A stretch of DNA of 64,000 nt, from contig CAYJMS010000001.1 in assembly GCA_964371615.1 (NCBI GenBank), positions 23,048-87,047 on the forward strand. The letters run 5' to 3'. The notes beneath the pieces are model-generated. The model did no database searches, was not told the origin of the DNA, and worked only from the letters and a program-made list of their open reading frames with translations. This document shows positions 33,304 through 33,483 of this stretch, piece after piece; within the stretch, counting starts at the first letter, position 1, and each line of letters starts with the position of its first letter. The DNA comes from an uncultured Chitinophagaceae bacterium. Lineage in GTDB: Bacteria > Bacteroidota > Ignavibacteria > UBA10030 > UBA8401. A program made the position numbers and the translations under genes.

Positions 33304-33483
33304 AGTAGTGGTTCTGTCCGACTGTTCCGTTGACAGTAACATGTGAAAAGGCGATTGCTCATGTTCGGGCACTGTTGAACAGCAGAGGTTCTGTCCGGCT
33401 GAATCCGGTCTTTCGGTCCGAGCAGAGCGATCATAGAAGATCTGAGACTTCGGAAGAATAGTGGTCCTGTCCGATTCTTCCGG
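33304..33483. repeat. Three direct copies of a roughly 22-26-nt motif spaced about 77 nt apart. Consensus: GGTyCTGTCCGryTswwTCCGG.
   Basis: The three copies are AGTAGTGGTTCTGTCCGACTGTTCCG (33304-33329), AGCAGAGGTTCTGTCCGGCTGAATCCGG (33381-33408) and AATAGTGGTCCTGTCCGATTCTTCCGG (33457-33483). They sit in the 440-nt intergenic region after hpf. Only the motif is conserved between units. Confidence 0.6.

Follow-up and report, generated by a model that had tools for sequence, protein, structure and literature searches.

Between hpf and the gene for a small outer-membrane beta-barrel (OMP) protein, the window, that is, the whole 64-kb stretch of DNA analysed here, carries a conserved non-coding element. 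We read it as a clade-specific, structured RNA of the plus strand that is probably released as a discrete, terminated molecule and presents three loops to one partner, and we put the probability of this reading at about 0.55. The element is a credible new small RNA of ~205-300 nt, whose transcription we infer from the sequence. Its novelty would lie in being a conserved structured RNA absent from Rfam; bacterial regulatory RNAs of its kind, with several hairpins that repeat a loop motif, are already known. Structural features of that kind are found in the element: at least two same-strand hairpins with the same loop, covarying stems, and a terminator-like end of its own. As far as could be searched, the element appears confined to a narrow Ignavibacteria-like clade (eight sequences, two subclades), and this narrow known distribution limits its general importance. 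Table 1 lists its parts.

Table 1. Parts of the conserved element, in window coordinates
Feature	Position	Strand	Description
Whole conserved non-coding element	33193-33495	+	296-nt block 33193-33488 plus T-run
5' box GGGATTAACTACTCTTTCATTCCTTTGGACGATTTC	33221-33256	+	36 nt, invariant; candidate promoter/operator or 5' RNA domain
TACATTCT box	33276-33283	+	possible -7/-10 promoter element, 22 nt past 5' box ...GAT
Hairpin 1	33288-33340	+	~23-bp interrupted stem; loop motif 33307-33320
Middle domain	33353-33432	+	long-range stem 33353-33360 / 33425-33432 around hairpin 2
Hairpin 2	33380-33401	+	CAGC/GCUG stem; loop motif 33384-33397
Hairpin 3	33446-33487	+	14-bp stem; loop motif 33460-33473
T-run	33490-33494	+	with hairpin 3, intrinsic-terminator-like end

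Genomic Context

The gene that precedes the element (32762-33124) encodes a 120-aa HPF/RaiA protein (Pfam S30AE; homologues named RaiA/HPF), and genes for TamB-like and Omp85/TamL proteins lie upstream. On the other side, 75 nt from the element, is the gene for a 186-aa OMP_b-brl protein (33568-34128; Pfam E = 5e-9). Because the TamL homologues are named Ignavibacteriales or Bacteroidota MAG, and because a T9SS sorting domain is found at 46835-49906, the source is taken to be an uncultured, Ignavibacteria-like member of the FCB group.

The element follows hpf, as the first-pass annotation had noted, but this location holds in a positional sense only. In the subclade of L130 and L134, hpf is followed by its own A5-hairpin-T5, ~45 nt before the 5' box (L130 6288-6316; L134 ~2960-2995). 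This symmetric A5-stem-T5 looks like a bidirectional terminator; no such hairpin lies between hpf and the element in the window's subclade. Since hpf has its own A5-hairpin-T5 in L130 and L134, the element is not simply an hpf 3' UTR, and the same hairpin argues for a transcription unit separate from hpf. The 5' box, moreover, recurs in other lineages without hpf nearby.

Elsewhere in the window, a very long plus-strand ORF spans 611-9496 (2961 aa). A 581-aa full-length KaiC homologue is encoded at 36934-38679 (NCBIfam PRK09302, E = 3.6e-211), and it precedes the gene for a B12-binding radical SAM protein (38720-40198). In a genome of Ignavibacteria-like origin, a clock ATPase of the KaiC type may merit attention.

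The Repeat Unit

The first-pass annotation had described three copies of a 22-nt motif, about 77 nt apart, separated by unrelated sequence. The copies and their spacing are real. The core AGWGGTYCTGTCCG occurs three times in the 64-kb window, at the loop-motif positions of Table 1, and nowhere else in it, and the exact 11-mer GGTYCTGTCCG is found solely at 33310, 33387, and 33463. A repeat search of the window returned a single three-copy family (33298-33329, 33375-33406, and 33451-33482) with start-to-start distances of 77 and 76 nt, the 32-nt copies being 69-81% identical to each other. When up to one mismatch is allowed, GGTYCTGTCCG has 8 matches in 64 kb, compared with 1.8±1.5 expected; the five one-mismatch matches besides the three sites are scattered across the window. 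A near-match at 25500, ~65-80 nt inside tamB, is within chance expectation.

The unit itself is longer than 22 nt. It is a 34-nt hairpin module with a ~10-bp stem (yCGGAAnAry / ryUnUUCCGr) and a 14-nt loop, AGNGGUYCUGUCCG, and the TCCGG that had been taken as the end of the motif belongs to the 3' stem arm, at its base. Between the modules, the sequence is indeed unrelated. Alignment of 16 distinct modules shows that they have the stem sequence in common as well as the loop. Eight of the ten stem pairs carry both-side changes, and 83% of the cells are paired, as compared to 30-45% with slid partners. Because the stem sequence is shared among modules, the three hairpins are consistent with paralogous 34-nt modules that originated by internal triplication. 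The 14-nt loop can close further as a mini-helix of 2-3 bp (G-G/C-C), leaving a 5' AG bulge and a UYCUGU hexaloop.

With a covariance model built on the 34-nt module (model R1), the three window sites score 45-53 bits on the plus strand and 12-17 bits on the minus strand, and the next best match in the window reaches 15 bits. The model finds exactly three modules in each full-length orthologue. Beyond the modules, the maximum is ~17 bits in ~84 kb of related loci, which include the distant relatives L131-L133 and L138-L140. In the ~148 kb scanned in all (window plus related loci), no module lies outside the element, and the top weak scores are the modules themselves read on the reverse strand.

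That the repeats are neither a CRISPR array nor a simple tandem duplication had been recognized at the outset, and the data agree. The repeats are just 69-81% identical over 32 nt, the inter-module sequence is unrelated, and the would-be spacers are 89-95% conserved and pair with the repeat flanks. A Type III toxin-antitoxin RNA (ToxI-like) was also rejected; the modules are split by unrelated sequence, and the downstream gene encodes an OMP_b-brl protein.

Conservation and Covariation

Syntenic contigs were collected through HPF homologues: L126 (98% HPF identity), L125 and L124 (84%), L122 (80%), and L137 (84%), the last of which ends after the second loop. A metagenome scan with a stricter two-loop pattern added one further true homologue (L128) along with two unrelated matches. 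The deeper subclade was reached through TamL homologues, which gave L130 (TamL 76% identical), and then through the HPF of L130, which gave L134-L136. The resulting alignment (A2) holds eight distinct sequences from two shallow subclades.

Phylogenetic footprinting finds the block 33193-33488 to be 89-95% identical to the window in four syntenic relatives, with a length of 295-296 nt, and the modules are kept in orthologous intergenic regions. This conservation exceeds that of the surroundings: the coding DNA of hpf, OMP, and Omp85 is 82-93% identical in the same relatives, the 5' flank of the block 13-78%, and the 3' flank 42-72%. The L130/L134 subclade keeps the order TamB-TamL-hpf-element-OMP, and the order element-OMP is kept in 8/8 orthologues. 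L122 alone among the orthologues has ~200 nt of extra sequence (3364-3630) between its hpf gene and the element.

The loops and stems have evolved differently. In the L130/L134 subclade, hairpins 2 and 3 keep their loops unchanged and the stems are rewritten with compensatory changes; the arms of the hairpin 3 stem read GACUUCGGAAGAAU/AUUCUUCCGGAGUC in the window, as against ACUUCGGAAACGC/GCGUUUCCGAAGU in L130. All three loops are intact in L134. The hairpin 1 loop of L130 has decayed to AGAAGUUCCUACCG, so three intact loops are not strictly required.

Covariation was assessed on A2 with a structure of 49 pairs composed of hairpin 1, the long-range stem, hairpin 2, and hairpin 3. Of the cells, 88% are paired, versus 34-48% with slid partners. 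Both-side changes occur in 14 pairs, compared with 5.7±1.6 in shuffles and 1-3 when slid, although some of these changes are shared by descent: the rows belong to two shallow subclades, so that some of the covariation reflects a single event passed down to several of them. In hairpin 3, 100% of the cells are paired, and five pairs are compensated from one subclade to the other around an identical loop; hairpin 1 has both-side changes in four pairs. Several stem pairs are G-U and would be A-C mismatches on the opposite strand. These G-U pairs, together with the strand bias of model R1, indicate that the RNA strand is the plus strand.

The same data bear on whether the motifs act as DNA. Their regular spacing of 77 and 76 bp and their conserved core had suggested phased sites, ~77 bp apart, for a transcription regulator of hpf or of the OMP gene. 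The results speak against this. What is conserved is a hairpin: the flanks of every motif are complementary and enclose an invariant loop, and their compensatory and G-U-type changes make sense only in plus-strand RNA; strand asymmetry is strong, with the model R1 scores given above; and the motif is not palindromic. The whole 296 nt is conserved rather than three islands, and 77 bp corresponds to ~7.3 helical turns, which would place successive sites on different faces of the helix. We consider phased DNA sites the least probable reading of those weighed here, and a very remote one.

Several similar hairpins with stem sequence in common, in an intergenic region 3' of a gene, could also be a REP/BIME-like cluster or a decayed MITE cluster with a generic role such as mRNA 3'-end protection or insulation. 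Against this, neither the 64-kb window nor ~84 kb of relatives holds a further copy, and viral contigs contain no matches. Lineages with TamL identity as low as 76% have the hairpins in the same number, order, and position. Conservation is higher in the loops than in the stems, the opposite of REPs, and the non-repeat parts of the element are conserved as well as the repeats. A mobile or generic hairpin cluster is therefore, in our estimate, very unlikely.

A coding reading was rejected because every orthologue has at least two stops in all six frames. A 48-aa ORF (33200-33346) is annotated as a gene in a public assembly (L126 1287-1433). In L125 and L122 it has a TAA at codon 3, and the gene call is probably spurious.

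Folding and the Terminator-Like End

Each motif copy was folded with 24-nt flanks, with the 14-nt motif constrained to be single-stranded. All three copies form apical hairpin loops on the plus strand. Hairpin 1 folds at -15 to -21 kcal/mol in all orthologues, as compared to -5±2.5 with the 3' flank shuffled, and hairpin 3 folds at -20 to -24 kcal/mol in all orthologues. For these two hairpins, shuffled 3' flanks yield ~-5 to -8 kcal/mol, and 0-2 of 200 shuffles are as good. Hairpin 2 of the window's subclade has a stem of just 4 bp and an energy no better than that of shuffled flanks; in L130 and L134, it has a 9-10-bp stem at -16 to -17 kcal/mol. The long-range stem around it (8 bp) is 95% paired across orthologues, with the changes U-G>C-G and G-C>A-U, and the MFE folds of the window and L134 both contain it. 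The RNAalifold consensus for the middle domain was unstable because of the many GAUC palindromes, and a hand-drawn structure was used in its place. Over a 251-nt region, folding gives z = -4.1 on the plus strand versus -2.1 on the minus strand.

The element ends in a terminator-like structure. An inverted repeat (33446-33459 / 33474-33487; 14 nt, 93% complementary) flanks the third motif copy, and a terminator scan matched 33472-33488 plus CTTTTTCC (CTTTTT). Hairpin 3 thus places a GC-containing stem directly before a U-run, as in a rho-independent terminator. The window's subclade has a U-run of 5-6 nt, and L130 and L134 have one of 4 nt (TTTT) that follows an extended stem. Two T-runs had been singled out as terminator tails; the one that follows hairpin 3 is conserved, and the other, at ~33508, is not conserved in relatives. 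Of the two functions first suggested for the repeats, the modular small RNA is the one that fits: the motifs sit in plus-strand loops on covarying stems, conservation is higher than in the flanks and genes, and the end is terminator-like.

The 5' Box and the RNA 5' End

The 5' box is the most conserved part of the element and is identical in both subclades. It is also found, with 1-6 changes and without the hairpins, in L138 (2825-2860), L139 (2127-2165), and L132 (5856-5890). In L138, an OMP homologue (65% identical) lies ~150 nt downstream of it. In L139, it lies upstream of a 217-aa gene that is followed by an OMP homologue, forming a two-gene unit. In L132, it comes directly after TamL, with no hpf. 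No terminator-like site was seen between the box and the OMP homologue of L138 or the two-gene unit of L139.

In alignment A3, which covers five lineages, a second box, TAC(A/C)TT, follows the GAT of the 5' box at a fixed distance of 22 nt. The T, the A, and the sixth-position T are invariant in A3, and downstream of TAC(A/C)TT the five lineages share nothing. This box may be a -7/-10 promoter element. Taken together, the 36-nt box and TAnnTT are candidates for a regulon promoter/operator or a shared 5' leader motif, and two placements of the RNA 5' end can be proposed. The 5' box and TAnnTT could form a promoter with an upstream operator, in which case the RNA would start near 33288 and be ~205 nt long; position 33288 is the start of the covarying hairpin 1 stem. 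The geometry TTTC-N19-TAnnTT resembles the Bacteroidetes -33/-7 promoter consensus, with an imperfect fit. Alternatively, the box could be the 5' domain of an RNA of ~300 nt that starts near 33195. Two features accord with the longer RNA, namely a weak GAAAGAG/CUCUUUC hairpin and a small covarying YCC-UUU-GGR palindrome.

By eye, no convincing sigma-70, sigma-54, sigma-28, or ECF promoter was found in or before the 5' box. A sigma-70 scan match, TCGACA-N16-TATTGT at 33268-33295, was rejected, as it is not conserved in L130 and L134. The organism may use -7 promoter elements of the Bacteroidetes type. In the window, TAnnTTTG has 31 matches versus 26±5 expected, which is not a significant enrichment, and 5 of the 20 plus-strand matches lie at most 200 nt upstream of the start of a long plus-strand ORF. 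Boxes of this form occur 20-190 nt before long plus-strand ORFs at 12452, 14279, 20461, 56106, and 61422.

Relation to the OMP Gene

The presence of the 5' box directly upstream of OMP homologues in distant relatives favours a cis link between the element and the downstream OMP gene. The element could then be a cis-acting leader or attenuator of that gene. Transcription would run from at or before the 5' box towards the OMP gene, and a factor bound to the loops would stabilise the hairpin register, including the hairpin 3 terminator, and so set read-through. The spacing in L138 and L139 described above, with no terminator-like site in between, fits this model, as does the order element-OMP in 8/8 orthologues. 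The shared box suggests that the ancestral unit continued into the OMP gene, with the hairpins and terminator now gating read-through. Furthermore, one module's 3' arm is able to pair with the 5' arm of the module that follows, which would offer an alternative register; in L134, CUGUUCCG can pair with CGGAACAG and UUCCGAAG with CUUCGGAA. However, such cross-module complementarity is expected from paralogy alone, and it is weak in the window's subclade. When the RNA of five orthologues is truncated before the 3' arm of hairpin 3, it folds without a conserved or stable antiterminator, and the terminator stem is very stable (-20 to -24 kcal/mol).

The candidate promoter of the OMP gene bears on both sides of this question. 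A -35/-10-like pair, CTGTCA-N17-TATAAT (33524-33552), lies between the terminator and the OMP gene. The TATAAT box reported in the first-pass annotation is present at 33547-33552; relatives retain CTGTCR ... TnnAAT, so the pair is partly conserved, and of the -10 box itself they keep TnnAAT only. The presence of this pair argues against the leader. A start ~7 nt past TATAAT, however, would land on the GGAGG Shine-Dalgarno (33558-33562), which implies either a very short OMP leader or a non-functional promoter match. A start at or inside the Shine-Dalgarno makes the pair doubtful as the only OMP promoter, and this point favours a leader. Because there is no conserved antiterminator and a -35/-10-like pair precedes the OMP gene, we rank the leader or attenuator second, as a serious alternative that is less likely than a discrete, terminated RNA.

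Comparison with Known RNAs

Searches with the Rfam 15 covariance models gave no match at the gathering score in the whole window. At E<=10, the interval 32900-33800 yielded just three chance miRNA/snoRNA matches (E 7-10), and the orthologous loci in L130, L134, L138, and L139 gave none at E<=1. Viral contigs showed no match to the loops or to the 5' box. A genome-collection scan with CGGACAGRACC-N50-80-CGGACAGRACC returned at least 120 loci; those listed, most of them from high-GC genomes, are tandem repeats or chance pairs. In public genomes, two copies of GGTYCTGTCCG at a distance of 60-90 nt are a common component of unrelated tandem repeats, chiefly those of high-GC Actinomycetota and of Clostridia, so the bare 11-mer is not diagnostic of this RNA.

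The closest functional parallels are sRNAs that repeat one loop. CsrB, RsmY, and RsmZ are independently terminated, carry several stem-loops with the same loop motif, bind multiple copies of one protein, and end in a hairpin that is the terminator. Their loops, however, present GGA (ANGGA) to CsrA/RsmA. The element has three sites only, its loops AGNGGUYCUGUCCG have no GGA, and its GGA triplets sit in the stem arms (CGGAA). CsrB-type Rfam models are also unmatched, and the element is unlikely to be a CsrA decoy. In Firmicutes, RsaE, LhrC1-5, and RNAIII have C-rich/UCCC loops in which a motif is repeated in two to four loops per sRNA and is used for base pairing; these sRNAs, too, are lineage-restricted. 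Those motifs are short, C-rich, and anti-Shine-Dalgarno, whereas that of the element is 14 nt long, is not anti-SD-like, and has no complementary target in the window. The best duplex of the loop with its complement in the 64 kb reaches -20 kcal/mol and is equalled by shuffled loops, a 64-kb search being one of low power. A duplex scan with the 5' box gave no informative result.

Among cis regulators, guanidine-II (mini-ykkC) and other tandem-hairpin elements likewise have repeated small hairpins with conserved functional loops upstream of the regulated gene. Mini-ykkC has two hairpins with ACGR tetraloops near the ribosome-binding site of transporter genes. In contrast, the element has three hairpins with 14-nt loops over ~200 nt and a strong predicted terminator, lies 75 nt from an OMP gene, and has no Rfam match. 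The raiA RNA motif of Firmicutes and Actinobacteria is, similarly, a large structured non-coding RNA that neighbours raiA/hpf, but it is pseudoknotted and lies upstream of raiA, whereas the element lies downstream of hpf/raiA and the hpf adjacency of its 5' box is not conserved. A cmscan at E<=10 over 32900-33800 found no raiA match, and this identity was rejected.

The bulge-plus-hexaloop shape of the closed loop resembles that typical of protein-recognition hairpins, a likeness of form only. The MS2 and PP7 coat-protein operators and the IRE have a similar short upper helix, a 5' purine bulge, and a conserved hexaloop; their sequences and biological context differ from those of the element. 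Two weak likenesses were dropped: a loose resemblance of the loop to the tRNA T-arm (GGUUCGAAUCC) and a loose complementarity to the sarcin-ricin loop.

Proposed Function

Our analysis allows us to outline how a discrete RNA of this kind may work. Internal triplication of the 34-nt module would have produced three paralogous stem-loops. Transcription would proceed on the plus strand between hpf and the OMP gene. The middle stem-loop would be enclosed by the long-range helix, and hairpin 3 would double as an intrinsic terminator, releasing a discrete RNA of ~205 nt if the start is near 33288 or ~300 nt if it is near 33195. Each stem would display the same 14-nt apical sequence. Because the loops are invariant, the stems are free to change, and the modules are triplicated, the loops are likely the working surface, and multivalency likely matters. 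We infer that the element has a loop-binding partner, and the loops would most likely bind several copies of it or a single partner multivalently. Candidates for the partner are an RNA-binding protein with sequence specificity, for which the RNA would act as a decoy or scaffold (cf. CsrB/RsmZ), and a complementary RNA, which would be engaged through repeated seed loops (cf. RsaE, LhrC).

A more specific version of this model is speculative, and we hold it to be rather unlikely as a whole, somewhat more so than the leader or attenuator. The three bulge-plus-hexaloop hairpins would be high-affinity sites for a new sequence-specific RNA-binding regulator of Ignavibacteria. The element would belong to a new class of decoy or attenuator RNA in the FCB group, would be tied to an OMP regulon through the 5' box, and would be an OMP leader that triplication turned into a terminated RNA.

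Hardly any work exists on regulatory RNAs of Ignavibacteria and of the uncultured FCB lineages related to them, and a literature search found no report on such RNAs in Ignavibacteria. The 14-nt loop could be used as bait for a new RNA-binding protein or as a seed for target prediction. The shared 5' box defines a candidate regulon that would include small OMP genes beside the TamB-TamL assembly genes. If the more specific model is true, the element would found a new class of decoy or attenuator RNAs in the FCB group, tied to an envelope/OMP regulon through a 5' box that related lineages also have at their OMP genes. It would also illustrate how an OMP-gene leader can evolve by module triplication into a terminated regulatory RNA.
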